Source: Candidatus Micrarchaeota archaeon (GTDB lineage Archaea; Micrarchaeota; Micrarchaeia; Norongarragalinales; SBBD01). Taken from it: a DNA stretch of 59,563 nt. The position numbers and the translations under genes are program-made. The notes under the pieces are model-generated. The model did no database searches, was not told where the DNA came from, and was given only the letters and a program-made list of their open reading frames with translations. The first letter of the stretch is position 1, and the number at the start of each line of letters is the position of its first letter. This document shows positions 33,849 to 56,732 of this stretch, one piece after another. The stretch spans positions 1-59,563 of the forward strand of contig JAZDGU010000050.1 in assembly GCA_043806595.1 (NCBI GenBank), read 5' to 3'.

Positions 33849-33859
33849 ATGCAGGGGGA
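33849..33859 (+). repeat. tRNA-Leu 3'-end core copy L4 (ATGCAGGGGGA, 11 nt)
   Basis: Same orientation as 56612..56623. It lies in the intergenic region between aIF2-beta and the MFS gene. Confidence 0.5.
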
Positions 33860-33933
33860 ACGGGGAGTATTAAAACGATTGTTTAAATACGCCCCCGGTC
33901 AAAAAAAGTGAAACGCCTCATTCAGTGGTAGCC

Positions 33934-35121
33934 ATGGCATTCAAGGAGATACTGTCGACGCCGGGGATAAAGCCCGTGCTCTTCACGCTGTTCATGGCGG
34001 CTTTCGGCTTCGGCGTCATACTGCCCCTGCTGCCGTTCTACGCGACGTCGCTCGGAGCAAAACCGTTCGAGCTGGGCATGCTTACCGCAACGTTCGCCAC
34101 CATGAGCCTCATCTTCGGCCCGCTATTCGGCAGGCTGAGCGACCGGATAGGACGCAAGAAGGTGCTCATGATCGGCACGGCGGGATTCACCTTTTCCTAC
34201 CTGCTGTTCGCCGTCGCGGACTCCCTGCCCATGCTTTTCGTCGCGCGCGGACTCGAAGGGCTGTTCGCCGCGGGCATATTCCCCGCTAGCATATCCCTCC
34301 TCTCCGACCTGACCAGCGACGCCAACCGCGGAAGGGCGATGGGCCTCGTAGGCATGAGCTTCTCCCTCGGATTCATCGTCGGCCCTGCGTTCGGAGGGCT
34401 GGCGAGCGGCATCTCGGTGCATGCGGCGTTCCTGCTTTCCGCGGCGCTCGCGGCGCTCAACTTCGCGTCCGTGTGGCTGCAGGTAAGCGAGCCTAAGGCG
34501 AAGGAGAAAATCGGGGACATCGTGGCAAAGGAAATCAGCCTGCTCGAGCACGTAAAGTCCCCCCTCCTGTTCGCGTTCCTGTCCACGTTCGTCATCGCCT
34601 TCATGCTCGGGGGCCTCGACGCGACCCTCGCGATTTACACGGGCGAAGAGCTGGGGTTCAGCTCGCCGCAGGTCGGCCTCGTGTTCACATACATAGGGCT
34701 GCTCATCATGGCGATGCAGTTCATCGGCGGCGCGCTCATCAGCAAATACGGGGAACTGCGGATGATACCCGCCGGCTTCGCCCTCAGCGGCCTCGGGTTC
34801 ATGTCCCTCATCTTCGCCCACTCGTGGCCGATGCTCATGCTTTCGCTCACGATTTTCGTCAGCGGCAACGCGCTCGTGTTCCCCTCGGTCAACTCGCTGG
34901 TCACCAAGCGCGTGGCGGCCAACCGCGGCGCAGTGCTCGGGCTCGTGACGTCCTTCCAGTCCATGGGGCAGATGGCCGGCCCCCTCCTCGGCGGTTTCCT
35001 CTACGGCTACAACCACGACTTCCCGTTCATCGGCATGGCGCTGGTCATCTGGGCGTACGCCCTGATATTCGTGCTCGTCGGCAGGCCGAAGCTCGGGGCC
35101 GCGCCGCCGAGGCCCGCCTAA
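33934..35121 (+). CDS. MFS transporter
   Basis: 12 TM helices. GRLSDRIGRKKV loop motif between TM2 and TM3. Confidence 0.8.
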   Translation: MAFKEILSTPGIKPVLFTLFMAAFGFGVILPLLPFYATSLGAKPFELGMLTATFATMSLIFGPLFGRLSDRIGRKKVLMIGTAGFTFSYLLFAVADSLPMLFVARGLEGLFAAGIFPASISLLSDLTSDANRGRAMGLVGMSFSLGFIVGPAFGGLASGISVHAAFLLSAALAALNFASVWLQVSEPKAKEKIGDIVAKEISLLEHVKSPLLFAFLSTFVIAFMLGGLDATLAIYTGEELGFSSPQVGLVFTYIGLLIMAMQFIGGALISKYGELRMIPAGFALSGLGFMSLIFAHSWPMLMLSLTIFVSGNALVFPSVNSLVTKRVAANRGAVLGLVTSFQSMGQMAGPLLGGFLYGYNHDFPFIGMALVIWAYALIFVLVGRPKLGAAPPRPA

Positions 35122-35166
35122 TAAAACACTCATTTTAAAAATGGGGAAAAGCCAGATATCTGCCGT

Positions 35167-36342
35167 ATGGACGTACAAGCGCTATTCCAGAGGCCGAAGG
35201 GAATCGCATACCTCGACTCCGCGGCGACGTCGCTCACCGCGAACGCCGTCATCGCGAAGATGGATGAGTACTACCGCGACTACCGAGCGAACATCCACCG
35301 CGGGGAGCACAGGCTGACGCGCAGGGCAAGCGGGGAATACGAGGCCGTCTATGCGAAGCTGGCGAAGTTCTTCCGCGCAGGCGAGCAGGAATTCATCGCG
35401 ACAAGGAACGCCACGGAGGCAGTCAACGGAGTGGCGCTCGGATTGGAATGGAGGGAAGGCGACGAGGTCGTCACCACTGAAGTCGAGCACCACTCGAATT
35501 TACTGCCATGGCTGAGGCTCAGGAGCAAAGGCGTCAAGGTCAGCGTGGTCAAAGCCGACGCGCAGGGAAGGTTCACCGCTGACGATTTCGCGCCTTTGCT
35601 GACCAAGAAGGCCCGTCTGGCGGCATTCACCGCTTGCAGCAACGTGCTTGCCGCGAAGGTCCCCGTGAAGGAGATCGCAAAGGCGGCCAAGGAAAACGGC
35701 GCGCTCGTGCTCGTTGATGCTGCACAGCACGTCGGGCACCACGCCATTGACCTGCGCGAGTGGCATGACGTGGACTACCTCGCGTTCTCGGGGCACAAGT
35801 GCTTCGGGCCGACGGGAATCGGCGCGCTCTTCCACCGCGAAGGGGCGCCGCTTGAGCCGTGGTTCGCCGGCGGAGGAACGATTCAGGAGGCGAGCCTCGA
35901 AGGGTACAAACTGCTCGGCCACCGGGAGAGGTTCGAGGCGGGCACGCCGCCAATCGCGGAATGGATCGGGCTAGGCGCGGCGCTGGACGTCATCGGAGAA
36001 ATCGGGCTGCGGAACATCGAGGAGCACGAGGACAGGCTCATAAAGGAGATGCTCAAGGCGTTCGACGGCGCGGCGAACGCCGCCCTCTACGGGCCGAAGG
36101 CCGCCGCGGAGAAGTCGGCGGCGCTCTTCGCATTCAACGTGAGGGGAGTGGCGCACCACGAGGCGGCGGTGATGTTCGACCGGCTCGGGTTCGCGCTGCG
36201 AAGCGGCCACCACTGCGCCCAGCCGCTGACCCGCAAGCTGGGGGTGGAGGGCACGGTCCGCGCGTCGCTGCACGCCTACAACACGGAAGAGGAGGCGCGC
36301 GGGTTCGGAGAGGCGCTCGCGAAGGTCGCGGCGCTGGGTTGA
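35167..36342 (+). CDS. sufS: Cysteine desulfurase (class V aminotransferase, SufS/CsdA-like)
   Basis: YLDSAATS, ...FSGHKCFGPTGIGAL (PLP Lys), RSGHHCAQP (catalytic-Cys loop). Confidence 0.85.
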   Translation: MDVQALFQRPKGIAYLDSAATSLTANAVIAKMDEYYRDYRANIHRGEHRLTRRASGEYEAVYAKLAKFFRAGEQEFIATRNATEAVNGVALGLEWREGDEVVTTEVEHHSNLLPWLRLRSKGVKVSVVKADAQGRFTADDFAPLLTKKARLAAFTACSNVLAAKVPVKEIAKAAKENGALVLVDAAQHVGHHAIDLREWHDVDYLAFSGHKCFGPTGIGALFHREGAPLEPWFAGGGTIQEASLEGYKLLGHRERFEAGTPPIAEWIGLGAALDVIGEIGLRNIEEHEDRLIKEMLKAFDGAANAALYGPKAAAEKSAALFAFNVRGVAHHEAAVMFDRLGFALRSGHHCAQPLTRKLGVEGTVRASLHAYNTEEEARGFGEALAKVAALG

Positions 36343-36351
36343 TTGCGGCAC

Positions 36352-37260
36352 ATGGTACTATGCTTCATCGCATTGTTCGTCTTCGCGGTCATGGGCATAT
36401 TCTCCGCGAGATACCGCTCGCTTGCGAGGGAGGCGCTCGACTGCACGCTTCGCACAGCGACGCTGAGGCCGTGCCAGGGCAACCTCGACGAGAGGATCAA
36501 GGCAACCGTTCTTGCCAAGCTGCTCAACCATTCCCCGGCCGCGGCACGCTTCCTGAACAGGAACTTCCAGGCATTCTCGACGCTCATGGTGATACTCTTC
36601 TTCGCGAGCCTCGCGTATTCCGCGGTGTCGGTCTACAACTACGCGGCCTACGGCAACTGCAACGGCCCGCAGGGGGGGTTCTGCCCGCTGGACGTGCTGA
36701 CCGGCGGCAACAAGATGCCCCTCACGCAGATCCCGCCCGGCATTGGCCCCACTCTCGGCAACGGCACTGTCGCGCTCGTGGAGGTCGGCTGCTTCACTTG
36801 CCCGTACACCCGCGGCGCGGAGCCGGCGCTCAAGGAATTCCTGCAGGGACACCCCGAGGTCAGTCTCGAGTTCAGGGTGCTGCCGCTGCCTAGCCACGAG
36901 AACTCGTTCATCTCCGCGCAGGCGGCTTTCTGCGCCGAAGGACAGGGCAAGTTCTGGGAGATGCACGACCAGCTGTTCAAGGAAGCCGACCATTCGCGCG
37001 AAAACCTTGTGAGGATGGCCGGGGCCATCGGCCTCGACGCGGACGAATTCGGTTACTGCCTCGATTCGCAGGCCTCGAAGGACCGCGTAATGCAGGACGA
37101 GGATGCCGCCAAGGCGCACGGCATCTACGGCACTCCGACGTTCTTCCTCAACGGCAGCATCCTCGTCGGCCCGCAGACGCTCCAGAAGTTCGAGGACGCG
37201 CTCGCGGGGAAGAACGTGACCGCGGGAGGAGGAGGCAACGCCTGCCCGCCGCCGGTGTGA
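36352..37260 (+). CDS. Membrane-anchored DsbA-family thiol:disulfide oxidoreductase
   Basis: N-terminal TM segments, then a thioredoxin-like domain with VGCFTCPY (CxxC) and ...GIYGTPTFFLNG (cis-Pro loop). Confidence 0.7.
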   Translation: MVLCFIALFVFAVMGIFSARYRSLAREALDCTLRTATLRPCQGNLDERIKATVLAKLLNHSPAAARFLNRNFQAFSTLMVILFFASLAYSAVSVYNYAAYGNCNGPQGGFCPLDVLTGGNKMPLTQIPPGIGPTLGNGTVALVEVGCFTCPYTRGAEPALKEFLQGHPEVSLEFRVLPLPSHENSFISAQAAFCAEGQGKFWEMHDQLFKEADHSRENLVRMAGAIGLDADEFGYCLDSQASKDRVMQDEDAAKAHGIYGTPTFFLNGSILVGPQTLQKFEDALAGKNVTAGGGGNACPPPV

Positions 37261-37264
37261 GCCT

Positions 37265-38638
37265 TCAGCGCCCAAGGCGCATGGAAGGCATCTTCGCGAT
37301 CAGCGAGGAGTAAATCCTCGGCAGCAGATCCAGCGAGCGCAGCGTAACGAACTCGCCCTGCGAGTGCCACTGCCCGCCCTCCGAGCCGAGTTCCACCACG
37401 GGAATCCCCCGCGCCGCGAAGCAGCTCGCGTCGGACTGGCCGCGGCCTTCGCGCCGAAACGGCACGGGCCTGCCGAGGACGCCTTCCGCGACCGCTGCGG
37501 CCTCCATCGGCCAGCGGCCGTTCTGCTCGAGGGAATGCTTGAATTCTGCTAGGCGTACGTCCGCGCCGGGGATGCCGCTCTCGCGCGCAAGCCTGCGGAC
37601 CGAGCTGGCCACCTGCTTGCGGTTGTTGTTCATGATGCGCAGGTCCAGCCAGAGCGTGTACCGCCTGCCCTCGCGCTCGAGGCGGTTGGGGCAGATGCTT
37701 ATCCCGTAGTGCGAGAAATCGCTGTGGAACGGCGGGAAGAAAAGCTTCTGGACGAACAGCATGAGCTTGTGCGTGCCCTCCTCCGGCAGCATGGAAGGCC
37801 GGTAGTACGCCACTCCCTTCGACGGCACCACGTTGTCGGCAGAGGCGTCCACTCCCGCCTTAGTTCCGCCCAGCCGCACCTCCTGCAGTCCCATCAGCCT
37901 GCCGAAGAAATACGACTGGCTGAGCTCGAAAAGCGGGTGGTCCTGCTTGCCGTACCTGAAGCTGCTTATCGAGGTGTGCGCGCTGTGGATGGAGTTGCCC
38001 AGCTCCACGGCGCGCCTCATGCCGCTCACGCTCTCAAGCGCCCGCTCCCTCGGTATTTCGACGCGGAACAGGTAGCGCGCGCGCCGCCGGGTGACGACGT
38101 CGAACTGCGTCGGCTCGCCGACTACGGCGAAGGACTTCTCGGGCGCGACAATCCCCTCCTTGACGCACCTGCGGAGCGCAGCCTGCGTGCCGTAGCGCGC
38201 GCCAGTCTCCTCGTCGGGGACCATCAAGGCGACGACGCGGGTGCGAGACTTTGCCGCCTCCGGCTCCGACAGGGCGGCGAGGAAGCAAGCGATGCCCGCC
38301 TTCATGTCCGCGGTGCCCTTGCCGGAAATCACGCGCGCGCCCTTCCTGCGCCCCGCGGCCAGCTTGAACGCGTCCCAAGGCTGGTTGTCCGGCACAGTAT
38401 CATAGTGGCCGTTGAAGACGAGCGTCCTGCCCCGCGCGCGGCCCATGAAGCCGACGACGGACGGCCTCCCGCCGAAGGCGAAGCGCCTCGTCTGCATGCC
38501 TGCAGCCGCGAGCGCCTCCTCGATGTAGTCCGCGCACTCGCGGTGCTCGGAAAAGCCCTCGTCCTCGCCGAGAATGGTGCGGAACGAGACGAGCTTCTTG
38601 AGGTGCCGGAGGGCGGTTGCGCCCGAAGTGGGGGTCAT
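37265..38638 (-). CDS. M20-family metallopeptidase (ArgE/DapE/CPG2-like)
   Basis: Internal ATG 38638. FNGHYDTVP, GKGTADMKAG, PDEETG metal-ligand motifs. Confidence 0.8.
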   Translation of the reverse strand: MTPTSGATALRHLKKLVSFRTILGEDEGFSEHRECADYIEEALAAAGMQTRRFAFGGRPSVVGFMGRARGRTLVFNGHYDTVPDNQPWDAFKLAAGRRKGARVISGKGTADMKAGIACFLAALSEPEAAKSRTRVVALMVPDEETGARYGTQAALRRCVKEGIVAPEKSFAVVGEPTQFDVVTRRRARYLFRVEIPRERALESVSGMRRAVELGNSIHSAHTSISSFRYGKQDHPLFELSQSYFFGRLMGLQEVRLGGTKAGVDASADNVVPSKGVAYYRPSMLPEEGTHKLMLFVQKLFFPPFHSDFSHYGISICPNRLEREGRRYTLWLDLRIMNNNRKQVASSVRRLARESGIPGADVRLAEFKHSLEQNGRWPMEAAAVAEGVLGRPVPFRREGRGQSDASCFAARGIPVVELGSEGGQWHSQGEFVTLRSLDLLPRIYSSLIAKMPSMRLGR

Positions 38639-38736
38639 GGAGGTCACGCGCCGCACAGGCACAACCGAAAAGGGGCTGGCTGCCGGCAAGACATTTATAA
38701 CGGAGGGGGTAATAACTTTTTTGGTCGGGGTATGGT

Positions 38737-40068
38737 ATGAAGAAGCACTCGCTGGGGTTCGAGCTGGAGGCGTTCCTCATCGACGAAAAGGGCGGCCTGA
38801 AGGACGGCGCGACCAGCCTGCTCGCCGGCTTCGGCAGGAAAAAGCCGTTCATCCTAGAGGTCGCGGACTCGATGGTCGAGTTCAATACGACTCCCCACGA
38901 ATGGTCGCTCGGCTCGATAAGCAGCATGTTTTACCGCATCGCCCGCGTGGAAAAAAAATCGCCGTCGGCGCTCCTCCCGCTGGGCTGCTACCCCGGCAGG
39001 ACAGCCCCGAGAAGGCACTCCAAAGGGTGGTACGACCTGCAGAGCGCGGTCCTCGGGCCGGCATTCGACTACTATTCGACGAGGGTATGCGGATTCCACT
39101 TCCACTACGGGCTGCCCAAGGGCGGGCTCATGCCGGGAAACGCGCGGCTGCGAATATTCAAGGACAGCGCGCACCGCAAGAGCATCCTCTCAATGTACGA
39201 CTTCCTCGTCGCCGCGGACCCCGCGCTCTCCTGCCTCATGCAGTCCTCGCCGTTCTTCGAGGGCCAGCTGCTCGGCAAGGACGCCCGCGCCTTCGCGTAC
39301 CGCGACATGAGGCACCCGATGGGCTACGGCTACGGGCTTTACCACGAGCAGAAGGAGCTCGGCGGCCTGCCGAAGTATGCCAACACGCTCACCGACCTAA
39401 ACGACCTCGCGCTTTCCCGGAAGAAAAGCTACATCGCGTCGCTGAGGCAGGCGTCGGCAAAAGTGCCGAAATGGGTGCAGAAGGCGAACCCCCTCAAGTT
39501 CTTCTGGGGGCCCCTGCGGGTCAACAAGATCGGGACGCTGGAACAGCGCGGCATGGACGCGAACCTCCCGCAAAGGCTGATCGCCGCCGCGTCGACGCTG
39601 AACGCGGTGCTCAAGAGGATATTCTACGGGAAGGCGTCCGTCCGCCAGAGCGACTCGGCGGTCGCGCGGCCGTTCAGCTTCGACGGCGAGTACATCCGCA
39701 TCCCGCCCAACTCGTACGTCGCGAACGTGCTGCAGCCCGCGGCGGCGCTCAAGGGCCTCGAGGACGCGCGCGTTCGCAACTATTGCAGCTCCTTCTACAG
39801 GCTGGCGCACTCGTTCCAGAAGGAGGACGGCACCGTGTTCCTCGGGCAGGCGTTCCAGAAGAGCCTCGCCGACGGCAGGACCGTGTCCGACGACATCATC
39901 GCGCTCGCGAAACGGCGGGGCTGGAGGAAGGGCGAGCCGCTTGCGGATGATGCGGCGCAGGACATCGCCCTCGAATACGCGCTCAAGATGAAGATAGAAG
40001 TCTACGAGCTGACCGAGGTGGCAAGGGGCTGGCTTTCGGCGCTCGACGCCGAGAAGACCGCCGCCTGA
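38737..40068 (+). CDS. Glutamate-cysteine ligase family 2 (GCS2 / carboxylate-amine ligase) protein
   Basis: LGFELEAFLID, CGFHFHYG and GTLEQRGMDA resemble GCS2/YbdK-type ligases. Divergent from the M20 gene around ATTTATAA (38693-38700). Confidence 0.65.
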   Translation: MKKHSLGFELEAFLIDEKGGLKDGATSLLAGFGRKKPFILEVADSMVEFNTTPHEWSLGSISSMFYRIARVEKKSPSALLPLGCYPGRTAPRRHSKGWYDLQSAVLGPAFDYYSTRVCGFHFHYGLPKGGLMPGNARLRIFKDSAHRKSILSMYDFLVAADPALSCLMQSSPFFEGQLLGKDARAFAYRDMRHPMGYGYGLYHEQKELGGLPKYANTLTDLNDLALSRKKSYIASLRQASAKVPKWVQKANPLKFFWGPLRVNKIGTLEQRGMDANLPQRLIAAASTLNAVLKRIFYGKASVRQSDSAVARPFSFDGEYIRIPPNSYVANVLQPAAALKGLEDARVRNYCSSFYRLAHSFQKEDGTVFLGQAFQKSLADGRTVSDDIIALAKRRGWRKGEPLADDAAQDIALEYALKMKIEVYELTEVARGWLSALDAEKTAA

Positions 40069-40157
40069 AGGACAGCAGTATGCGGGGCAGGCGGCGAAAG
40101 CGGGTCCGACAGCCGCTAATAAAAAGGCGCGTCATAATTATAACCGGTGAGCAAGAC

Positions 40158-40559
40158 ATGGCCAGGAAGGGATTCGCGGACGATTTGGAGAAGATCACGC
40201 TTGAGAACGCGGACTTCCGGCGGGTGCTCTACACCGCCACGCACAGCCAGCTTGTGCTCATGAGCATCCCGCCCGGCGGCCAAATCGGCGCCGAAACGCA
40301 CGAGGAGCACGACCAGTTCTTCCGATTCGAGCAGGGCGAAGGCCTCGTGACCATTGACGGGAACGCGTATGCGGTCAAGGACGGCAGCGGGGTCATAGTG
40401 CCCGCCGGCGCGCTCCACAACGTGCAGAACACCGGAAAAACAGACTTGAGGCTTTACACCATTTACTCGCCCCCCGAGCACGCGGACGGGACCGTGCACA
40501 AGACGAAGGCGGAGGCGACGGCGCAAGAGGAGCACTTCGACGGCAAGACCACGGAATGA
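40158..40559 (+). CDS. Cupin-domain protein
   Basis: Internal ATG. G(x)5HxH-like ...GGQIGAETHEEHDQFF... and ...VPAGALHNV... cupin motifs. Confidence 0.7.
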   Translation: MARKGFADDLEKITLENADFRRVLYTATHSQLVLMSIPPGGQIGAETHEEHDQFFRFEQGEGLVTIDGNAYAVKDGSGVIVPAGALHNVQNTGKTDLRLYTIYSPPEHADGTVHKTKAEATAQEEHFDGKTTE

Positions 40560-40733
40560 CCGCGCTGCAGCCGCCCAATATAAGTATTTAAAAACTTGGT
40601 TCAAGTAAAGTAAAACGCAAGCGAAGCGGGCAGGATGCCCTCGTGGGAAAAACCGGCTTTTTGGGACGAAAGCGGCCACTGCGCAGGTAATAAAGCTGCA
40701 TGCACCACAAACAATACACCAACAGGTGATAAA

Positions 40734-40925
40734 ATGAAAGGAAAAGTGAAGATGTTTAACGACGCCCGCGGATTCGGGTTCATCACGGGCGACGACGGAA
40801 AGGACGTCTACGTGCACTCCTCCGCCATCGAGGGCGGCGGCGCACTCGCCGTCGGCGACGGAGTCGAATACGAAGTCGAGACGACCGATCGCGGCCTGCG
40901 CGCGAAGGGCGTCAAGAAAGTCTAA
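40734..40925 (+). CDS. csp: Cold-shock protein (CspA family)
   Basis: MKGKVKMFNDARGFGFITGDDGKDVYVHSSAI... contains the RNP1/RNP2 motifs. GGTGA lies 5 nt upstream of the ATG. Confidence 0.9.
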   Translation: MKGKVKMFNDARGFGFITGDDGKDVYVHSSAIEGGGALAVGDGVEYEVETTDRGLRAKGVKKV

Positions 40926-41006
40926 CGATCAAAGTCCACAAGCGGTTTCCGCTCAAACGCGTATAACCGCTTCAAACTTAAACGACTAGCCTTGGCTCGG
41001 GCAGGC

Positions 41007-41019
41007 GGATGCAGGGGGA
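41007..41019 (+). repeat. tRNA-Leu 3'-end core copy L3 (GGATGCAGGGGGA, 13 nt)
   Basis: Same orientation as the tRNA copy. It is bracketed by the 6-bp inverted repeat GGCTCG/CGAGCC and by direct repeats CCTTGGCTCGG (40990-41000) and CCTTTGGCTCGG (41030-41041). Confidence 0.65.
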
Positions 41020-41052
41020 CAGCCGCGAGCCTTTGGCTCGGTGCAGACTCCG

Positions 41053-41411
41053 TTATTTACGCTTATATCCAAAGCGCGTGTCATATTCGCCGTGCGGGCT
41101 GATTTCGAGCACGAAGGCGATGATTTCGATTTCCGTCTCACCCGCGGTTAGCGAATATAGCATCCTCCAGAATTGGGGGAGTTCCACCCAGAACAGGTTG
41201 GTAATGCCATACTTGGCCTTTTGTACTCATTCGGAATCTTGTCCTTGGAAATCGGCTCGCCGTAGTGTATGTTGGCCTTGATCAGCTCGACTTTCTTGTT
41301 GATGGCGTTGAGGATGCTGCGTTCGAGCTTGGATTCCGGCGCCCTGGCGTTCAAGTGCTTGTAGACTTCCTCGGCTTCCGGCGACAATATGACTCGAACG
41401 GCCTTGTTCAC
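41053..41411 (-). pseudogene. RelE/ParE-superfamily toxin, frameshifted
   Basis: GTG 41411 gives MNKAVRVILSPEAEEVYKHL...DKIPNEYK. After the A4 run (plus-strand T-run 41219-41222) the conserved continuation AKYGITNLFWVELPQFWRMLYSLTAGETEIEIIAFVLEISPHGEYDTRFGYKRK* is in another frame. The total is 359 nt, one nt short of a 120-codon ORF. Confidence 0.65.
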
Positions 41412-41680
41412 AGTTCCAGCCCCTTTGCAATTGCCTTCTTCAGGTTGGCGTTGTCATTGGCAATCCACGAAATCCCGCGCAGGGAAACGGCAATCTTGTT
41501 GCTCGCCTCCAGATACTCCAAAATCACGCGCAGCGTGTAGTGGTTGACCTGCTTTGGAAGCATCTTCTTCAGCTCGGCAACCGTGACGACGCTCTTCTTC
41601 ATGCCCGCCAAGACCTGCTCGACCATGATTACCGTCTTCAGGTTGGGTGCGTGCAAGACCCCCATCTTATACATAAACAT
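41408..41680 (-). CDS. Putative antitoxin / small DNA-binding protein
   Basis: 90 aa. Its stop overlaps the toxin start (GTGA). Leaderless behind AATATTTATG. The fold looks wHTH-like. The assignment rests on position. Confidence 0.4.
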   Translation of the reverse strand: MFMYKMGVLHAPNLKTVIMVEQVLAGMKKSVVTVAELKKMLPKQVNHYTLRVILEYLEASNKIAVSLRGISWIANDNANLKKAIAKGLEL

Positions 41681-46040: not shown

Positions 46041-46047
46041 ACTTGAT

Positions 46048-49111: not shown

Positions 49112-50206
49112 TCAGCACACCCTCTCGAGTTCCCGGCGCGCGAGCGCATCCGGGACATCCGCTACAACCTTGGCTTTCCCAATTTCCTCCAAGAGCGCCA
49201 TGGAGAGCTTCCCTCCGCGGTTTTTCTTGTCTGACTTGAGCGCCATCCATGCCGACTCCGCATCCACCCCCGTCTTGCCAATAGGCAGGCCCAGCCCTGC
49301 AAGCAATCCCGCGATTTTCTCCGACGCTTCCGGCGAAAGCCCGGTCATTACCGCGCTAATCCGGCATTCTGCAACCATGCCCACGGAAACCGCGTCGCCG
49401 TGCCTCAACGTCATTTTGGAAGACGCTTCCAATGCGTGGCCAACGGAATGCCCGAAATTAAGGAGCATCCGCGAAACTCCAGCGCGAGACAACTCCGTCT
49501 CGTCCTCCTCCACGATGCGGGCCTTTATGCTAACCGCTGAGGAAACCGCATCCTCCAGGGCTGCACTATCGCGAGCAACCAGCCTTGCGGCATCCCTTTC
49601 AAGCGATTCCACGAGCCTGCGGCTGGAAACGCAGCCTGCCTTCGCTATTTCGGCAAACCCCTGCCGGTACTCGGAGTCGGGAAGCGATTCGAGCGTCGAA
49701 AAATCAATGACGACCGCCTCCGGCTGATGGAATGCCCCCGCAAGGTTCTTGACGCCGAGGTTGACCCCGTTCTTCCCTCCGATGGAGCTGTCCACCATGG
49801 AAAGGAGCGTGGTGGGCACATGAATCAAGGGAATGCCCCGCATGTAAAGCGACGCCGCCAGCCCCGAAACATCGCCCACCACCCCGCCCCCGCACGCGAC
49901 CACGCACGAAGAGCGGTCCAAGCCAGCGGAATGCATTCGCACCAGCAGCGATTCTACGGTGGCGAGGCTCTTGTCCTTTTCCCCGTCGGGCATGGACAAT
50001 AGAGTGCAACGCACGCCGGCGTCGGGCATCGCTTGCACTATCCTGCCGGCTATTCCGGCCGTGTTGCGCGAGTGCACGACTACCGCCTTTTCCGCGCCCA
50101 GCCTTGCGGCTATCCCCGCGGCATCCTCTGCCCTGCCACCGACCACAATGGTGCATTCCCTCGCCTTTCCGCGAGTCCTCAGCTTCAGTCTTTTCATGGC
50201 AACCAC
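49112..50206 (-). CDS. aroB: 3-dehydroquinate synthase
   Basis: GGGVVGD..., ...DSSIGGKNGVN..., ...FGHSVGHALE... GTG 50206, or ATG 50197. Confidence 0.9.
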   Translation of the reverse strand: MVAMKRLKLRTRGKARECTIVVGGRAEDAAGIAARLGAEKAVVVHSRNTAGIAGRIVQAMPDAGVRCTLLSMPDGEKDKSLATVESLLVRMHSAGLDRSSCVVACGGGVVGDVSGLAASLYMRGIPLIHVPTTLLSMVDSSIGGKNGVNLGVKNLAGAFHQPEAVVIDFSTLESLPDSEYRQGFAEIAKAGCVSSRRLVESLERDAARLVARDSAALEDAVSSAVSIKARIVEEDETELSRAGVSRMLLNFGHSVGHALEASSKMTLRHGDAVSVGMVAECRISAVMTGLSPEASEKIAGLLAGLGLPIGKTGVDAESAWMALKSDKKNRGGKLSMALLEEIGKAKVVADVPDALARRELERVC

Positions 50207-50207
50207 C

Positions 50208-51086
50208 TCAGAGGCTCCTGCCGACGGCGCGCGCCACCGGGCCGACTTCGTCCATCAGCCTGCCGAACTCGCTAATCGTCAGCTGCTGCGCAGCGTCGCT
50301 GAGCGCCTCGTGCGGCCGGGGATGCACTTCCACCATCAGCCCGTCCGCGCCGGAGGCGATTCCCGCCTTGCTCATGGGAACGACCAGCTCCCGAACCCCT
50401 GTTCCGTGGGAAGGATCCACGACGATGGGCAGGTGGCTCAATGCCTTGACCAGCGGCACGGCGTTCAAGTCGAGGGTGTTCCTCGTCTCGGGCACGAACG
50501 TGCGGATGCCGCGCTCACACAGCACCACGTTAGGGTTGCCTTCGTTGAGGATGTACTCTGCGGCAAGAAGGAACTCCGAAATGGTTGCGGAAAAGCCGCG
50601 CTTGAGCAGCACCGGCTTCTCGCTTTTCCCAACCTCCTTGAGCAGGTCGAAATTCTGCATGTTGCGCGAGCCCACGCGCAGCATGTCGACCGAATCTTCG
50701 ACCAACTCGACGTGCGAAGGATGCATCACCTCCGTTTCCACCGCAATCCCGGCTTCCCTGCTCACATCCGCGAGAATATCTGTCGCCTTGATGCCGAGCC
50801 CCTGGAAATCGTACGGCGAAGTACGCGGCTTGAAGATGCTCCCGCGGAGCACGACCGCGCCCGCCCGTTTTACCCCGATTGCGGCCTCGAGCAGCTGCTC
50901 GCGGCTTTCAACTCCGCATGGGCCGGCGATAATCGCGAGCCGGTTTCCGCCTATTTCGACGCCCCCTTTAAGGCGCACGACGGTATTTCCTTCGCGCGTC
51001 TCCCTTGATGCAAGCCGCCAGAGCGCTTTTTTCGCGGCCGCCTCCTTTTTTTCACTCATTGCAAGCACCTTTTTTGGACTGGACAC
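50208..51086 (-). CDS. DAHP synthase (class I-beta, KDO8PS-like)
   Basis: [38 protein letters not shown]. The track start is GTG 51086; ATG 51059 is an alternative. First gene of the operon. Confidence 0.9.
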
Positions 51087-51490
51087 TGGGGAAAAAAGAA
51101 AAAACTAGTCAGGCTTCAAGGCCAGCGCTCGCTGGACAAAAAACCCGCTCCATTCGCCTTCCCGAGCTGCAAACCCGGAAAAAGGACAGGCCACTTTTCG
51201 ACTGAAAAAGGCCAGTTACTTAAAATAGAAATAGCCAAAGCGCAAGCTGGACGAACTCCTCAATAGATTCCAACCGCGAACTTCAGACATAGAGACACTT
51301 TTCCCTATCACGCTTAATTAATGTTTCGCCAAAGTCTCACGCGCCGACGATAACCAATTCGTTACTCTCCAAACTTAGCAGTCTTTTTATAGCCCAAAGC
51401 CAGCTTGTCCCAGCGGGTACGGGCATTAGAATCAGGGATGGTGCATCGAACTTCGTTTCGGTGCACTCGACCTGCATTTAAGCGGTGGGA

Positions 51491-51511
51491 CGTTTTTATG
51501 CCCAATTGGAC
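51491..51511 (+). repeat. CGTTTTTATGCCCAATTGGAC, right member of the 21-nt direct repeat flanking the aro operon
   Basis: 17/21 identical to 41859..41879. It lies 22 nt from core copy L1. Confidence 0.5.
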
Positions 51512-51533
51512 ACTAAGGAATAAATGTAAGGGC

Positions 51534-51545
51534 ATGCAGGGGGAG
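51534..51545 (+). repeat. tRNA-Leu 3'-end core copy L1 (ATGCAGGGGGAG, 12 nt)
   Basis: Exact 12-mer in the same orientation, in the 486-nt AT-rich spacer between the aro operon and the subtilase gene. Confidence 0.7.
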
Positions 51546-51572
51546 CACGGCAAGGAAGATGCTAGAGTCTTG

Positions 51573-54500
51573 CTAGTGCCGCCGCCTGCCGGCTATCTTG
51601 CGGACCTTTTTCATGTTTCTGTTGCGGTCGTAAAAGAACCACACAGTTACAATAACGACAGCGCTGACCATGAACGCTGCAGATTGCTCTACGGCCATGT
51701 TGGCGAAAGCCGAAAAACCGGCGGCTTCTACTTTCAGACTTCCTCCGCTGACCTCGCGGTCCATTGCGACAATGGGCTTGACGGTCGCGACCAGCAGCGG
51801 GCTGCCGCCTGGTACGGAAGTGCGCTTACATTGCCCATTTACCCAGACCCCCTGGATTTTCGATTCCACAGCAAGGTTGCTTCCGTCGGAGCGGACCCGC
51901 GCATCCAAGCAAATGTTGTTCCCGCCAAGGGTGCCTTGCTCCTTCCAGACGAACCGGTGGACTCCGGGGGCGCAAGAGACGGGGTACATGAAAGAAAGCT
52001 GGGTAAGGTCGGAGCCATCGCAGAAGACTCCGAACATGGCGCCTTTCACCGGAATTCCGAGGTAAAATGACAGCCAGGAGAGACCGCTGTAACTCGGGTT
52101 GGCGTACTCGTATTCCCCCGTGGAACCGAATTCGAACACCGTGCCATTGGGGGCGGTATAGGCCAAGGAGGAATTACCGTTAGACATTTCAAAGTAGTTG
52201 AAGCCATCAGCGTCGATTATCCTCGCATACAGGCGTTGTGGCTTGAAGAGGCCATCCATGGGATCCGAGTTCGAGATGTCCATCGAAAAAGGGCCTTTTG
52301 CGAAAGTCCAAGATGGCCGCGCGGAACGCGCCGGGTGCAAGGACTCAGTAACCATTGCGTAAGGAAGGTTGAAATAAATTCCGGTAAAAAACGCGTCGTA
52401 ACCGTAGAAGTACGCGTGTGCACTGCTTGGGACTGAATAAATGTTGTGCCGTTCGAAAGGGCCGGTGAACAGATATGACTTGGTGCCCCAGCCGGGCATG
52501 AACGATGTATCGATGTGGGGGATAGTTGCCGAAAAGGTGATGTCCTTCTCCGATACGTTGTCAATGTCAAACCCGGGGTCCAGTTGGGTAAAGGGATACC
52601 GGAAGACGGCCTTTATAGTACTGATTTTCCTCCCACATGCGCCGTCGAAGCAGTCGTTTTCCGAAAGCGGCCAGACCTCGGCGTAATAACCGTCCAGCAA
52701 TGTGTCGGACGCCGCATGCACCCCGAACCGGTAGTCCTCAATCCTGCTCGACGGAGAAACGTCGCCGAATATCAATCCGTCATAGCCTTCCCTATCGTGT
52801 TCTGTAGCGTTGCTTTTAAGGAACGAGTAGACGACGCGGAACGTGCGCAGCCCTTCCTCCGAATTGAACTTGGTTATGGAATCCAGATCGGCATCACGGG
52901 CGAGGTTCTCGTCGAAAACGTATGATTGGCTCAAGCTTGTCCCGAAATCCATCGAGCCCAGCAGGTGGAATACCTTGATGCGAGCGGGGCTTGGAGTGAA
53001 ATGGTAGGAAGTATCGGTCACTTCCATATTGCTGTCATAGGCAATCAAGCCGCTTATGTGAGTAATATTGTTATCCCTGTCCGGTATCATCAGGAATGGA
53101 GCGGTTGAAAAATAACTCAAGTCCCAGGTACTGGCATATTCATCGATGGAAAAGACCGGCGGGGCTGCCACGAAATCCATGGCAATTTCCTTCCACACTC
53201 CGAAGCTTGCCGGGAAATAGTGTGTCGACGGCGGTGCAAGGAAATCGCAGCCGGGAAATTCTTCGGCTTCCAGGAAGCCCATGCCAGTCGTGGTCGAGGA
53301 ACCGTTCGCGGAAACGCTGAAATTGACTAGCGCCGTATCTTCCGGGGCAAGGCACCACCGGTTCGGCTCGGAGAATCCGCCGGAAATCGGAGAGGCAGTT
53401 TTTCGGAAGAAGTCGAATGGCTTGACGAACCTGAATGACACGCCCATGGGCTGGCTCCCGAAGTTGCGTGCCGAGAACTGCTTCCAAGACCGGCTCCCCT
53501 GCGTCAGGACAATCGGGTCCATGCTGAAGCCGTCGGATACAATCTCTAAGCTCTGGACCAACGAGGCGGTGGCGTTGACGAGTCCTGCGCCTTGCTCAAA
53601 GGCCTCGAGCCCGAGGTCGCGCGAACCCTGTAAAATCATGCTCCTGATTTCCGACGACGTGGAGTTGCCCGCCTTGGCTTGGAACAGCAGCGCCGCCAGG
53701 CCGCTTACGTGCGGCGTCGCCATCGAAGTTCCGCTCAATGCGAAATAGTTGTCGTTCCCACAAATCCGGTTTTCGGACGGCAATTCCTGGTCGATATAGC
53801 TGCCCGGGGCGCGTGCGGCACAAATCAACACCCCCGGCGCAAGGACATCGGGCTTTGCGCGAAATATCTCTGCGCCGAGGCCCGGGCCCCTGCTGCTGAA
53901 CCATGCCAGTCCTCCGGACTTGTCCGTTGCGCCGACTGCGATTGAATAGGGGGCGCTTGCAGGACTCATCACAGTCAATTCGCCTGGACCGGAATTGCCT
54001 GCCGCGGCCACGACTACTGCGCCTGCAAGCGTGGCCTGATGGACAACCTCGTCGATGACGGGAGACCAGCCCGGCTGCCCCAAGCTGAGGCTGATGACGT
54101 TGGCACCCTGGTCTGCCGCCCATTCTATCCCCTGAGCAACCGAGGATTCGCTCCCGGAGCCGTCGTCCCCGAGGACCTTGACGTTGAGAAGCCACGCCTG
54201 GGGGGCGACGCCGACGAATTTGTAATCCGAGGCTATACCCGTGCCTGCAGCAATGCTGGCAACGTGCGTCCCATGGCCGAACATGTCGTCCGAGCCGGAC
54301 GGGCTGCCAGAGAAATCTATCGCGCCAACGATTTTGGGGTCACTCGTAATTGGGTCGTCATCCAAGTCATCCAAATCCGGGTGCGAAGAGCGGATGCCGG
54401 TATCGAGGATGGCGATAATCACCCCGCTGCCGTTCAGCCCAAGCCCCGGAGTGGAATACCATTCCTGACGGGTAACCCCGAGGACGATTGGCGCGCTGTC

Positions 54501-54992
54501 GTTGAGCATCGCCCGTAATTTGGAGTCCACCTTCACCAGCGCGCCCTCCCTCTTCAGATTGGAAGCCACTGAAATCAGGCGGTCCTTCGGCACCCTGACG
54601 GAAAATGCAAGGACCGACTTTAGTTCGACGCCCAATACGCCGGCCGACGATGCGATGGCCTTTAACGAAGCGGTTTTTGTGGCATCCTTCCAAAAGACGA
54701 CCAAAGGAATTGACGTTTCCTTCGCATAATCCTGCAAATCTTGCTGTGAATAAATTACACCAGCCTGCTCCAACGACTTGTCGATTGTCAAGCCCGCACC
54801 GGGACTTCCCGGAATAACCTGCAGTTTGTCCTGGGAATTCAGCGCGCCGACCGTCGGTACGGCCTTACCTCCAATGAGAATGGAACCCGGCCAGGCATTC
54901 AGCTCCAGTCCTCTCGCGTCTAAGAAAGCGGCGGATTGAACTGAAAATAGGAAAACAAGAAAAACCACGAAATGCTTGGGCTCCAAGACCAT
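51573..54992 (-). CDS. Subtilisin-like (S8) serine protease, very large, with C-terminal TM anchor
   Basis: ATG 54992 gives the signal peptide MVLEPKHFVVFLVFLFSVQSAAF. Catalytic triad: ILDTGI (Asp), HGTHVASIAAG (His), GTSMATPHVSG (Ser). An extension of about 650 aa follows, then the TM helix AAFMVSAVVIVTVWFF and a basic tail. Spot GC is about 53%. Confidence 0.85.
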   Translation of the reverse strand: MVLEPKHFVVFLVFLFSVQSAAFLDARGLELNAWPGSILIGGKAVPTVGALNSQDKLQVIPGSPGAGLTIDKSLEQAGVIYSQQDLQDYAKETSIPLVVFWKDATKTASLKAIASSAGVLGVELKSVLAFSVRVPKDRLISVASNLKREGALVKVDSKLRAMLNDSAPIVLGVTRQEWYSTPGLGLNGSGVIIAILDTGIRSSHPDLDDLDDDPITSDPKIVGAIDFSGSPSGSDDMFGHGTHVASIAAGTGIASDYKFVGVAPQAWLLNVKVLGDDGSGSESSVAQGIEWAADQGANVISLSLGQPGWSPVIDEVVHQATLAGAVVVAAAGNSGPGELTVMSPASAPYSIAVGATDKSGGLAWFSSRGPGLGAEIFRAKPDVLAPGVLICAARAPGSYIDQELPSENRICGNDNYFALSGTSMATPHVSGLAALLFQAKAGNSTSSEIRSMILQGSRDLGLEAFEQGAGLVNATASLVQSLEIVSDGFSMDPIVLTQGSRSWKQFSARNFGSQPMGVSFRFVKPFDFFRKTASPISGGFSEPNRWCLAPEDTALVNFSVSANGSSTTTGMGFLEAEEFPGCDFLAPPSTHYFPASFGVWKEIAMDFVAAPPVFSIDEYASTWDLSYFSTAPFLMIPDRDNNITHISGLIAYDSNMEVTDTSYHFTPSPARIKVFHLLGSMDFGTSLSQSYVFDENLARDADLDSITKFNSEEGLRTFRVVYSFLKSNATEHDREGYDGLIFGDVSPSSRIEDYRFGVHAASDTLLDGYYAEVWPLSENDCFDGACGRKISTIKAVFRYPFTQLDPGFDIDNVSEKDITFSATIPHIDTSFMPGWGTKSYLFTGPFERHNIYSVPSSAHAYFYGYDAFFTGIYFNLPYAMVTESLHPARSARPSWTFAKGPFSMDISNSDPMDGLFKPQRLYARIIDADGFNYFEMSNGNSSLAYTAPNGTVFEFGSTGEYEYANPSYSGLSWLSFYLGIPVKGAMFGVFCDGSDLTQLSFMYPVSCAPGVHRFVWKEQGTLGGNNICLDARVRSDGSNLAVESKIQGVWVNGQCKRTSVPGGSPLLVATVKPIVAMDREVSGGSLKVEAAGFSAFANMAVEQSAAFMVSAVVIVTVWFFYDRNRNMKKVRKIAGRRRH

Positions 54993-55236
54993 CACCTGGA
55001 CAATATGCGCTACTATTAATGGATTAAACAAATCCAGGTTTATTAATTTACGTAAATGGCGAAACTGACCTTAAATTTAGCCGTTAAATTTAACGGGAGA
55101 AGTTCTCCGCCCGTTCAACCCCTTGAATTTTCTCGCGCAAACGGCGTTTTTCATATCTGAAACTCGGCCGATTTTTCTCCGCCTGTTGCGCTCCATAGCT
55201 TATCCCGTATAGATCGGATTCATGCAGCGTTTAATT

Positions 55237-55258
55237 GGATGTAAACAAATGTCAACAC
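55237..55258 (+). repeat. GGATGTAAACAAATGTCAACAC, left member of a 22-nt direct repeat flanking the ATPase gene
   Basis: 20/22 identical to 56452..56473. It is followed by the inverted half-site TGTTTAC. Confidence 0.65.
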
Positions 55259-55278
55259 TTCCGTGTTTACCTTTGTCC

Positions 55279-56463
55279 TCATTCGTTCCGTAAAAGGTAT
55301 TCCCTGAAAAGCGGTATTGAAAACGAGTATTTACCTCGGCTGGCGCGGTAGACGAGCCCTTTTTCCGATAGGCGCTTCAATAGTTCCATTAACGTGGGGT
55401 GGGAGACTCGTGCGGTTGACCGGATTGCCAGTGCTGGAACGGGTTGGTTCCCGGCCTTGGCCATGGCGGATAAAACCTTCTTTTCCTTGTCGGATGCAAG
55501 GTTGAAGCGGTCGTCGAAGAATCGCATGTCAAGCTCTTTGACAAGTGCAGGGCGCAGTCTTTCAAGATCTTCAAGCGATAGCCTGGTTTTATTCGAGTAT
55601 TCTATGAGGAAATAGCCGTAAAACTGGAGGAAGAATGGATATCCCTTGGTTTCTTCAACTATGGCCGCCACAAGGTCTTCATCGAACTGGAATGCGGAAT
55701 CTTTGAGTGTACCTAGAACGGCGTTTTTAGCCGCTTGGGCCGGCAAGTTGTTCACTTCCTTGAAAGAAAACATTCGTTCGGTATAGGTCTTGGCTTCCTT
55801 GAGGTTCGCTTTCAACGGCGGGAGGCCGGACAAGACGAGATAGTATCTGCAGCCGTTTCTTTGGGCGTACGCCATGGCGCCCAAGAGACTGGCAAGCGGA
55901 AATGACTTCGACTCTGCTTTGTCGCGGATGGAATGGAACTCGTCGTACAGCAGTAAAACCCCGGTTTTACCAGAATTTTGGAATACTGGCCAGTTGGATA
56001 CGAGCATTTCCTTCAAGTAGTCTTCAAGCAAGTCCCGATTTTCCTTATAAAACGGCTTGTACTTGAACCCAAACGCGGAAATCTCCTCTGGTTTTAAAAA
56101 ATCAATGACTTTTTTTCCTGTTTCGGTTATCCGCTTTTGGACTGAAGCCTCGCTTGCAGCCGAAAGCAAGTCCTTGACTACCGCGTCCGCGAATACCGTG
56201 TCGTCGCTGAAGCGGTCGTTGAACTCGCGTTCTATACACAGCCATTTCTTGCTTTCCCCGATGCTTTGAAACCGCCGTAACAATACCGTTTTGCCTGTGC
56301 CACGAAATCCAAACAGCACGAGGTTGTGCGGCAAGCCTTGGCTGTAGCTGTCAAGCGTTTTGGAGAAAAAGGAGAGGATTTCTTCCCTTCCGGCAAGGTA
56401 CTTGGGTTCGATGCCGTTTCCAGGCATGAACGGGTTGTTTTTCGCATTCGCGGATGTAAACAT
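55279..56463 (-). CDS. Arch_ATPase/STAND-like AAA+ ATPase with C-terminal wHTH
   Basis: ATG 56463 (MFTSANAKNNPF...). Walker A FGFRGTGKT, Walker B LLLYDEFH, C-terminal ...HPTLMELLKRLSEKGLVYR. Spot GC is about 50%. Confidence 0.75.
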   Translation of the reverse strand: MFTSANAKNNPFMPGNGIEPKYLAGREEILSFFSKTLDSYSQGLPHNLVLFGFRGTGKTVLLRRFQSIGESKKWLCIEREFNDRFSDDTVFADAVVKDLLSAASEASVQKRITETGKKVIDFLKPEEISAFGFKYKPFYKENRDLLEDYLKEMLVSNWPVFQNSGKTGVLLLYDEFHSIRDKAESKSFPLASLLGAMAYAQRNGCRYYLVLSGLPPLKANLKEAKTYTERMFSFKEVNNLPAQAAKNAVLGTLKDSAFQFDEDLVAAIVEETKGYPFFLQFYGYFLIEYSNKTRLSLEDLERLRPALVKELDMRFFDDRFNLASDKEKKVLSAMAKAGNQPVPALAIRSTARVSHPTLMELLKRLSEKGLVYRASRGKYSFSIPLFREYLLRNE

Positions 56464-56473
56464 ATGTAAACAC
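56452..56473 (+). repeat. GGATGTAAACATATGTAAACAC, right member of the 22-nt direct repeat flanking the ATPase gene
   Basis: It overlaps the ATPase start codon and forms the palindrome GTAAACA-N6-TGTTTAC with downstream sequence. Confidence 0.65.
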
Positions 56474-56612
56474 AATTTTGTTTACATTTAATAAACGCGT
56501 TCCAACCTCGTTTCCGCTGAACAATCTTCCCAAAAGTCGTTTGACGATAAAGAATTAGGCACGCGCCGAGAGTCATAGAGGAGAAAAGTGAAGACTATAG
56601 TATTATACCGGA

Positions 56613-56732
56613 TGCAGGGGGAGGGATTCGAACCCTCGAAGCCCTACGGCACAGGATTTCACAGCCCGGCGCGCCGCATGCGCACCCCGGCGTTTAAGTC
56701 CCGCCCCTTTGACCCAGCTCGGGTACCCCTGC
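56613..56732 (-). tRNA. tRNA-Leu(UAA) with 35-nt intron at 37/38 and long variable arm
   Basis: GCAGGGG-UA-CCCGAGCUGGGUCAAAGGG-G-CGGGA-CUUAAA[35 nt]A-UCCUG-UGCCGUAGGGCUUC-GAGGG-UUCGAAU-CCCUC-CCCCUGC-A. Confidence 0.8.

Follow-up and report, generated by a model that had tools for sequence, protein, structure and literature searches.

Probable site-specific accretion of integrase-less modules at the 3′ end of a tRNA-Leu(UAA) gene in a Micrarchaeota genome

How do copies of the 3′ end of one tRNA gene come to lie, all in one orientation, between blocks of functionally different genes? The question is raised by contig JAZDGU010000050.1 of a Candidatus Micrarchaeota archaeon (assembly GCA_043806595.1), of which positions 1 to 59,563, hereafter the window, were analysed. 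Beside its tRNA-Leu(UAA) gene lie, one after another, an ATPase and subtilase gene pair (module C), an operon for aromatic amino-acid synthesis (aro, module B), a toxin-antitoxin-like (TA) cassette (module A) and a block of genes running from an MFS transporter to a cold-shock protein (csp). A preliminary description, made from the sequence alone, had read this as a tandem array of captured segments, a view supported by composition and by empty and filled sites in relatives. We consider that the region from 33.85 to 56.6 kb is probably a site-specific accretion array at the tRNA-Leu(UAA) 3′ end, built of integrase-less modules that are flanked by attachment (att) sites and mobilised in trans. 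The evidence that carries this reading consists of the repeats, the foreign composition of modules A-C, empty or differently filled sites in relatives with breakpoints at the repeat, and site arms shared by inserts with and without an integrase.

The window was searched for the 12-mer ATGCAGGGGGAG with up to one mismatch. It was found exact at 41809, 51534 and 56612 and with a single mismatch at 33849 and 41009, that is five matches against 0.38 expected, a number reached by none of 100 shuffles. These were exactly the five sites of the preliminary description, on one strand and all intergenic. The 11-mer common to all copies (TCCCCCTGCAT, in the sense of the tRNA) occurs exactly five times, on the same strand and always between genes, and no extra match with up to one mismatch was found on either window strand. 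As had been correctly described, the motif spans three nucleotides of the T-stem, the 3′ strand of the acceptor, the discriminator and one flanking nucleotide of tRNA-Leu(UAA). The shared orientation of the copies also stood; the tRNA gene itself, however, is interrupted by a 35-nt intron and is encoded on the minus strand, so that the motif written on the plus strand is the reverse complement of the tRNA 3′ end. Default ARAGORN misses this intron-containing gene, which is detected by Rfam and by ARAGORN in intron mode. The copy at 41007-41019, given earlier as a 13-nt match, actually matches the tRNA copy and its flank over 14 nt (CGGATGCAGGGGGA). Features of the region are collected in Table 1.

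Table 1. Features of the array and of its surroundings, in window coordinates.
Feature	Coordinates	Strand	Evidence
aIF2beta, conserved native gene downstream of the variable region	33355..33765	-	translation; tblastn
Core 1, exact 11-mer, abuts the aIF2beta promoter	33849..33859	-	
Block between cores 1 and 2 (MFS-csp)	33860..41008	.	Pfam, GC3, synteny
Core 2, exact 11-mer, CGAGCC/GGCTCG hairpin before it	41006..41020	-	
Module A, toxin-antitoxin-like cassette	41021..41808	-	
Module A, RelE/ParE-like toxin, frameshifted	41148-41411; C-terminal part, other frame, ends near 41054	-	
Module A, 90-aa winged helix-turn-helix (wHTH)-like protein	41408-41680	-	
Core 3, exact 12-mer, module B/A border	41809..41820	-	
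Module B, 9-gene bacterial-type aromatic amino-acid operon (41909-51086)	41821..51533	-	Pfam
Core 4, exact 12-mer, module C/B border	51534..51545	-	
Module C, AAA_16 ATPase and S8 subtilase	51546..56611	-	Pfam, PADLOC, GC3
Module C, S8 subtilase, 1152 aa, GC3 0.68	51573-55031	-	Pfam
Module C, AAA_16 ATPase with C-terminal wHTH, GC3 0.60	55279-56475	-	Pfam
Core 5, the tRNA's own 3′ end (CTC + CCCCTGC + A + T)	56612..56623	-	
tRNA-Leu(UAA), 35-nt intron, array anchor (attB)	56613..56732	-	Rfam 43.1 bits; ARAGORN with introns
Ribosomal protein L40e, native, GC3 0.89	56791..56955	-	
tRNA-Thr(GGU), integration site of a separate integrase-bearing element	57277..57348	+	
Tyrosine recombinase, 459 aa, C-terminal zinc ribbon, GC3 0.65	57288..58667	-	Pfam 7.5e-17

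Could the repeats be unrelated to recombination? They might be due to chance or to composition, or they might act in cis as regulatory or processing signals (promoter, terminator or protein-binding site) whose likeness to a tRNA end is accidental. Three-copy 12-mers are common in this GC-rich window, where about 11 unrelated families of them occur; the exact 12-mer triple alone is therefore weak evidence, and the expectation of fewer than 0.01 copies stated earlier holds for an a priori probe only. Core 1 lies between two divergent promoters, and the hairpins found before several cores could be terminators. The part that is not due to chance is the set of five exact 11-mers in a single orientation, all intergenic; the shuffles never matched it, and cores were not found in the rest of the window or on the opposite strand. 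Since the comparative data given below already contradict it, a motif without a role in recombination is hardly credible. A Shine-Dalgarno-like or promoter element was likewise considered and dropped. Repeats of 11-14 nt would be too short to yield a chimeric assembly, and an assembly chimera was discarded on that ground.

The functional content ascribed to the blocks was borne out by Pfam. Between cores 1 and 2 are genes for an MFS transporter, a class-V aminotransferase, a DsbA-like protein, an M20 peptidase, a 443-aa protein, a cupin and a cold-shock protein. The GC content at third codon positions (GC3) is 0.82-0.90 in this block, csp excepted (0.67), and native genes as a whole (those for TruD, eIF1A and L40e and, from the block, MFS, aminotransferase, DsbA-like, M20, 443-aa protein and cupin) span the same range. 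In modules A-C (41.0-56.6 kb) GC3 is 0.60-0.79, with 0.69-0.79 for the TA pair and 0.62-0.77 for the nine aro genes. By this measure modules A-C are foreign in composition, as is the integrase at tRNA-Thr (0.65), and the MFS-csp block is not. The GC drop noticed earlier in the right-hand modules is thereby sharpened, and the segment to the right of the 33849 copy is, as had been said, not compositionally distinct. The tetranucleotide check that had been proposed gave a correlation to a left-hand native reference that falls from about 0.9 to 0.4-0.8 at 41 kb. On the far side of the tRNA, L40e and the two tRNA genes form a 0.7-kb native islet flanked by two foreign regions. A GC3 anomaly at the opposite end, a 145-aa open reading frame (ORF) at 33344-33781, proved to be the wrong frame of aIF2beta.

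These figures bear on the possibility that modules A-C, or even all 22.8 kb, had been joined elsewhere and came in by one integration at tRNA-Leu, the internal cores being relics of the donor. All genes of modules A-C are co-oriented with tRNA-Leu and broadly similar in GC3, the outermost pair of copies (the tRNA copy and that at 41009) shares the longest identity, 14 nt, and in bacteria accreted tandems are known to be transferred as a whole (PMC5704250). Modules B and C nevertheless differ in GC (0.58 and 0.53) and in tetranucleotide correlation (about 0.75 and about 0.55); moreover, relatives differ stepwise, cassette by cassette, and one of them holds the TA cassette alone beside the tRNA. 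A single arrival is therefore improbable.

Relatives were sought by scanning metagenome contigs with an L40e alignment, which gave 80 loci with up to 10 kb on each side (the prefix L numbers the loci of this and of the other scans). The placement of tRNA-Leu directly after L40e is kept in about 24 of the 80, and the microsynteny tRNA-Leu(-)/L40e(-)/tRNA-Thr(GGU)(+) is identical in two Micrarchaeota metagenome-assembled genomes (MAGs), L006 and L078. This synteny and the best matches suggest that the organism is DPANN/Micrarchaeota-related. Far-side genes (aIF2beta, eIF1A, a 582-aa protein, tRNA-Lys and TruD, in this order) are kept in four loci; the window aIF2beta matches those of L122, L120, L147 and L125 at 57-63% (tblastn). 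Within this conserved frame the gap between the tRNA-Leu end and aIF2beta is variable: 73 nt with no insert in L147, 1.2 kb in L125, 3.7 kb in L122, 6 kb in L120 and 22.8 kb in the window. The MFS-csp block is not at the matching position in any of these four loci. Core 1 directly adjoins the conserved aIF2beta promoter (AGGGGTTTTTTAA type), at the point where the tRNA ends in L147. Even the copy that had been judged the weakest has this position, and core 1 is presumed to be the original junction between the tRNA-Leu end and aIF2beta. In L122 the TA cassette of the window stands straight after tRNA-Leu. Its proteins are 81-83% identical to those of the window, and its DNA is 74% identical through the distal core, while native proteins of the two genomes are 51-75% identical. 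Compared with L122, the window has the aro and subtilase/ATPase modules between the tRNA and the TA cassette.

Four loci (L122, L142, L143 and L144) carry two to four same-strand cores downstream of tRNA-Leu, 0.73-1.2 kb apart, and none on the opposite strand. L142 and L144 show 100% identity across L40e and tRNA-Leu and, further on, where a cassette designated Z begins; between these two stretches L142 has an extra 3,026 nt (three cassettes), with breakpoints on the core. Cassette Z is first in L144, fourth in L142 and third in L143, where it is 99.7% identical and preceded by two other cassettes. A Fic cassette common to L122 and L142 (75.6% DNA identity) has different neighbours on both sides. 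All these cassettes are integrase-less and 0.6-1.2 kb long, with Fic, pairs of ParE/YoeB-like and RelE-like toxins, family-2 glycosyltransferases, methyltransferases and unknowns as cargo. A rule by which cassette genes are always co-oriented with the tRNA was rejected; it is true in the window and in L143 and false in L122 and L142.

A second clade has the order L40e, tRNA-Thr(AGU), tRNA-Leu(UAA), the latter ending in CCCACCCCCTGCA. Here the sites of L192 and L196 are empty. L176 has an insert of 3,296 nt exactly at the core, with a 14-nt duplicated overlap, which encodes a tyrosine integrase 36% identical to that of the window. The inserts at the core of L195 (629 nt) and L186 (2,682 nt, at least two cassettes) are integrase-less, and the arms of their cassettes are 90-97% identical around different cargo. 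The presence or absence of modules with breakpoints at the cores, named in advance as a check, was thus found in L147, L122, L142/L144 and in L192/L196 compared with L176/L195/L186. Indel breakpoints fall exactly on the core in two independent clades, against the view of the motif as a mere signal or chance repeat.

The same cassettes decide how seriously a pile-up by decay has to be taken. Under this alternative autonomous elements, each with its own integrase, would have integrated and later lost integrase and replication genes, the next element entering at the tRNA-proximal att site after decay, without any mobilisation in trans. Small integrase-bearing elements with the same core and arms do exist (the 3.3-kb L176 insert and L118), loss of the integrase after integration and tandem accretion are documented in archaea and bacteria (PMC8371274, PMC5704250), and the frameshift in the module A toxin is a sign of decay. 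Integrase-less cassettes, however, recur with the same boundaries beside other neighbours (the window shares the TA cassette with L122, which in turn shares the Fic cassette with L142), those of 0.63-1.2 kb keep both arms intact, and in L195 and L186 nearly the same arms surround unlike cargo. Such regular units are unlikely to result from repeated independent deletions, and no integrase remnant was detected in the window array. We regard decay without mobilisation in trans as unlikely, though it is the alternative to be taken most seriously.

What would such units be recognised by? Thirteen aligned sites other than tRNA ends have a common plan: GTCTGC, a short hairpin, gcgcACT, CCCCCTGCA and CTyAGAC(n)GTCTAr. 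Variation in the hairpins and in the proximal palindrome is compensatory (GAGCC/GGCTC, AGAC/GTCT, AGCC/GGCT). Compared with shuffled sequence, folding is better in the 45 nt before the cores (mean z -1.5) and no better in the 45 nt after them (z 0.08). A hidden Markov model of the site recovered the four non-tRNA cores of the window (E 1e-8 to 0.02) and no further site in it. The distal arm of the L176 integrase element (CAAGACTAATTATAGATTGAGACACAATTGTGTCTC ... GCGCACA-core) equals that of the integrase-less L143_c1 at 33 of 36 positions, at equal distance from the core. The aro module of the window has the same arm layout, namely a CAATTG-centred palindrome, GGTCTG/CAGACC, AGAC and then GCGCTCT-core. 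The element AAGACTCTAGCA, 20-32 nt before the core, is held by the distal arm of module C and by relatives' cassettes (L186, L188 and L143_c2). The TA cassette starts with CAGACATGGTCT in the window and with CAGCCCTGGGCTG in L122. Inverted repeats and a direct repeat pointed out earlier around the copies at 41009 and 41809 were confirmed. Core 3 is the centre of an imperfect palindrome of about 130 nt (41755-41884; z -3.5 to -3.9), to which the last part of one module and the first part of its neighbour contribute. Inverted CAATTG-centred palindromes lie near both ends of module B (51494-51516 and 41863-41885), and they would flank the core like attP if these ends were joined in a circle.

Structured recombination sites, an integrase outside the array and arrays of single-gene cassettes of about 1 kb with toxin-antitoxin, Fic, glycosyltransferase and methyltransferase cargo recall integrons and clusters of attC sites lacking integron-integrases (CALINs), both of which exist in archaea (PMC9668308). 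That an IntI-type integrase acts here on attC sites is nevertheless very improbable. The window integrase scored 33 bits with TIGR02249 (cut-off 265) and 29 with NF011946 (cut-off 435). Inspection of the 13 aligned sites revealed no R''/R' cores (RYYYAAC/GTTRRRY), the conserved block being gcgcACT-CCCCCTGCA-CTyAGAC. Where an integron would have attI next to intI, the array has tRNA-Leu; in L122 and L142 both strands carry cassette genes; and the archaeal integron paper (PMC9668308) names neither tRNA nor Micrarchaeota.

No integrase was found by Pfam inside the window array, as had been noted before, and tblastn matches to integrase remnants there were noise. The recombinase of the window lies at tRNA-Thr. 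Its catalytic domain (residues 72-337) is intact and is followed by a CxxC..CxxC zinc ribbon; with NCBIfam XerA it scored 80 bits (cut-off 220). The last 61 nt of its ORF overlap tRNA-Thr antisense, an ORF end inside a tRNA that invites comparison with the att-in-ORF arrangement of the SSV ('suicidal') type, in which integration splits the gene. Being integrated at tRNA-Thr and overlapping it, this integrase belongs to a separate element, whose other end lies beyond the contig. The same layout of tRNA-Leu, tRNA-Thr and integrase occurs in L027. In L118 (a Micrarchaeia MAG) a tRNA-Leu(CAA) that has the same 3′ end is followed, 95 nt further on, by the start of a frameshifted integrase gene, the product being 40% identical to that of the window; between the two stands a TAGAAC..GGTCT palindrome of the AGAC/GTCT kind. 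Members of the family, archaeal tyrosine recombinases about 400 aa long that carry a zinc ribbon at the C terminus, occur in many phyla and on four viral contigs. Since homologues occur inside inserts at the same tRNA-Leu core (L176, L118), it is plausible, as far as sequence comparison can tell, that the window integrase or another member of its family acts in trans on the array. Viral contigs gave no match to the integrase or to the ATPase as single proteins, and none to an attP-like pattern; a scan with the integrase alignment found four uncultivated virus genomes with family members at contig ends, which carry no att information.

The proposed mechanism would then be as follows. Each segment would enter as a circular molecule carrying an att site, composed of a distal arm (a CAATTG-type palindrome, GTCT/AGAC motifs, a short hairpin and GCGCnCT), the core (C)TCCCCCTGCA and a proximal arm with the yTyAGAC..GTCTAr palindrome. 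A tyrosine recombinase would exchange strands within the core at the intact tRNA end, so that the tRNA would be regenerated and a core copy left on the far side; later arrivals would re-use the tRNA-proximal site. Because insertion is tRNA-proximal in the standard attP x attB scheme, the newest module should be nearest the tRNA, and the order from newest to oldest would be C (protease/ATPase), B (aro operon), A (toxin-antitoxin) and the MFS-csp block. The enzyme would be supplied in trans, most likely by the zinc-ribbon tyrosine-integrase family, of which one member lies 0.6 kb away at tRNA-Thr. In this scheme we infer the circular intermediates, the identity of the recombinase and the order of arrival. 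A wider proposal is more tentative: DPANN-like archaea may possess a tRNA-anchored cassette system, analogous but unrelated to integrons, in which the tRNA-Leu(UAA) 3′ end serves as attI, the att site is a structured element of about 100 bp, and zinc-ribbon integrases acting in trans insert cassettes and probably exchange them between lineages, with cargo from a single gene to a 9-gene aro pathway or a defence pair.

Several points weigh against accretion by trans-mobilised modules. The core identity is short, 11-14 nt, and for window cores 1, 4 and 5 the agreement of the arms with the consensus is weak (nhmmer E 0.003-0.14). The genomes compared are of other species than that of the window (L40e 67-80% identical in amino acids), and modules B and C were found in none of these relatives, so that their independent mobility is conjectural. 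There is no recombinase inside the array, and none was seen beside the arrays of L143, L147 and L120; the window integrase sits at tRNA-Thr, with a flank that has no AGAC/GTCT arms. Finally, the MFS-csp block is native in composition, and csp is a normal tRNA-Leu neighbour in more distant relatives, so that the segment bounded by core 1 could be a native one that was rearranged and not captured. The block may be an old or intra-lineage acquisition or such a rearranged segment.

What do the modules bring? Module B encodes DAHP synthase, DHQ synthase, an SKI-DHQase fusion, shikimate DH, chorismate synthase, CM-PDT, an aminotransferase, prephenate DH and EPSP synthase. Its bacterial-type traits are a DAHP synthase I, an AroB-type DHQ synthase and an SKI-type shikimate kinase fused to a type I dehydroquinase. 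A word-indexed homologue search with the SKI-DHQase fusion (E 1e-30) returned only the query itself, which leaves the aro donor untraced. The S8 protein of module C matched the PADLOC models 'subtilase' (6e-34) and IetS (1e-7), and the ATPase matched the AAA_16 and wHTH models and not that of IetA, the ATPase that accompanies the S8 peptidase IetS in defence pairs of IetAS type. Exact-protein look-ups with the ATPase and with EPSP synthase found no record. For the M20 peptidase of the MFS-csp block the best homologue, 58% identical, lies on a 2-kb contig, and a scan of species-representative genomes revealed no relative, the lineage being poorly sampled.

A 38-nt repeat (79% identical, with GTAAAC/GTTTAC inverted motifs) is present upstream of both the subtilase and the ATPase gene (55237-55274 and 56452-56489), which suggests a shared operator. 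The noncoding 125 nt between these genes (55073-55197) are 78% identical to positions 12297-12421 of L120, which are found 1.9 kb downstream from tRNA-Leu and, with respect to the tRNA, are inverted. Rfam gave no match for the stretch, and its consensus structure is weak; a small RNA and a regulatory region are both conceivable. Within 51.0-57.4 kb Rfam matched only tRNAs. In module A the conserved C-terminal part of the toxin (YGITNLFWVELPQFWRMLYSL) is out of frame in the window and in frame in L122, so that the window gene is either a pseudogene or affected by a sequencing error.

Other observations concern the tRNA genes. The T-arms of tRNA-Lys(CUU) (31224-31243) and tRNA-Leu(UAA) (56620-56639) are identical over 20 nt (TCGAGGGTTCGAATCCCTCC). 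ARAGORN in intron mode listed three further candidates, Arg-CCU (13935-14078), Cys-GCA (14994-15089) and Ser-GGA (19457-19562), which Rfam does not list at its gathering threshold. At tRNA-Thr(GGU), the last 20 codons of the integrase (57288-57348) are tRNA antisense, and the stop codon falls within the D-arm. The intact tRNA gene is closely preceded by two extra 27-nt copies of its 5′ end (57088-57114 and 57197-57223), spaced 109 and 80 nt; each copy is followed by an A/T-rich hairpin (ACCTTTTCTTT..AAGAAAAGCTCGACCAAAAGAAA) like the tRNA introns of L118, L122 and L147. The spacer from L40e to tRNA-Thr is 189 nt longer here than in L006 and L078, a difference made up by these units. Similar repeats were found at the L122 contig start (1-124).

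A 22-nt pattern of the tRNA-Leu 3′ end proved too unspecific for a genome scan, which gave 117 loci from many phyla in fixed 8-kb blocks, none of them close. The scan did bring out the Micrarchaeota microsynteny described above, and in L013, L016, L029, L031, L065, L090 and L091 it showed tRNA-Leu genes whose last 13-21 nt are repeated once or twice only 60-280 nt downstream, the hosts of these short-spaced repeats being Thermoplasmatota, DHVE2 and Micrarchaeota MAGs. L029 and L090, which hold the two tRNA-Leu genes of one MAG, have the same sequence after the second copy. Judged by such repeats, tRNA-Leu ends terminating in CCCCCTGCA seem to be integration hot spots across phyla. Contigs L078 (position 4), L103, L043, L081, L079 and L122 (at its start) break only a few bases from a tRNA-Leu 3′ end, or at tRNA-Thr, as would be expected of assemblies with strain-variable insertions.

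If mobilisation in trans is true, this locus would be a dedicated gene-capture site of little-known, probably DPANN-related archaea, integron-like and separately evolved from tRNA-targeting integrases. Complete functions (here aromatic amino-acid synthesis of bacterial type, a defence-like protease/ATPase pair and toxin-antitoxin genes) could then be acquired in a single event by organisms with reduced genomes. The tRNA-Leu 3′ core with its conserved arms is a signature by which such cargo could be searched for in metagenomes, and the pair of a defined att site and an integrase is open to in vitro test. Even conservatively read, the locus is a clean and comparatively documented case of site-specific accretion in Archaea.

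The nearest known systems are archaeal elements of tyrosine recombinases, in which re-use of one att site yields tandem arrays (PMC6563490, PMC8371274); in Thaumarchaeota the att sites are short, 8-26 bp (PMC6563490). Like these tandem integrated elements, the array targets a tRNA 3′ end, each unit is bounded by direct repeats of that end, the att identity is short and the site is re-used. Unlike them, its units have no integrase, replication or virion genes, relatives carry single-gene cassettes of 0.6-1.2 kb with conserved arms, and the window array includes a whole biosynthetic operon. Bacterial cis-mobilizable elements (CIMEs) are integrase-less, att-flanked units that accrete with incoming elements (PMC5704250), those of ICESt1/ICESt3 type (Pavlovic 2004; Bellanger 2011) as summarised in the same review. 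The likeness lies in attL/attR flanks, the absence of integration genes, the tandem arrangement at a target-gene 3′ end and, as listed for CIMEs (PMC5704250) and proposed for the array, mobilisation by the integrase of a related element. Here, in contrast, the array is archaeal, a conjugation module is nowhere found, the cassettes look like regular units and not like remnants of random decay, and the integrase family has a C-terminal zinc ribbon.

With integrons and CALINs the array shares short cassettes in one orientation, an integrase outside, structured sites whose stems show compensatory change (AGAC/GTCT and AGCC/GGCT) and a cargo rich in toxin-antitoxin genes and accessory enzymes; it differs in having no IntI, attC consensus, attI or Pc, and in its tRNA anchor, its mixed gene orientation and cassettes of up to 9.7 kb. 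Integrative mobile elements exploiting Xer (IMEX), for example those of CTX/TLC arrays, have no recombinase of their own, integrate at one chromosomal site, dif, through Xer in trans and form tandem arrays, much as is proposed for the modules of the window. Here, however, the target is a tRNA 3′ end and not dif, and the nearby recombinase is far under the XerA threshold (80 against 220 bits). The array is therefore best read as a variant of known tandem integrative elements and CIMEs with integron-like features, and not as an integron.

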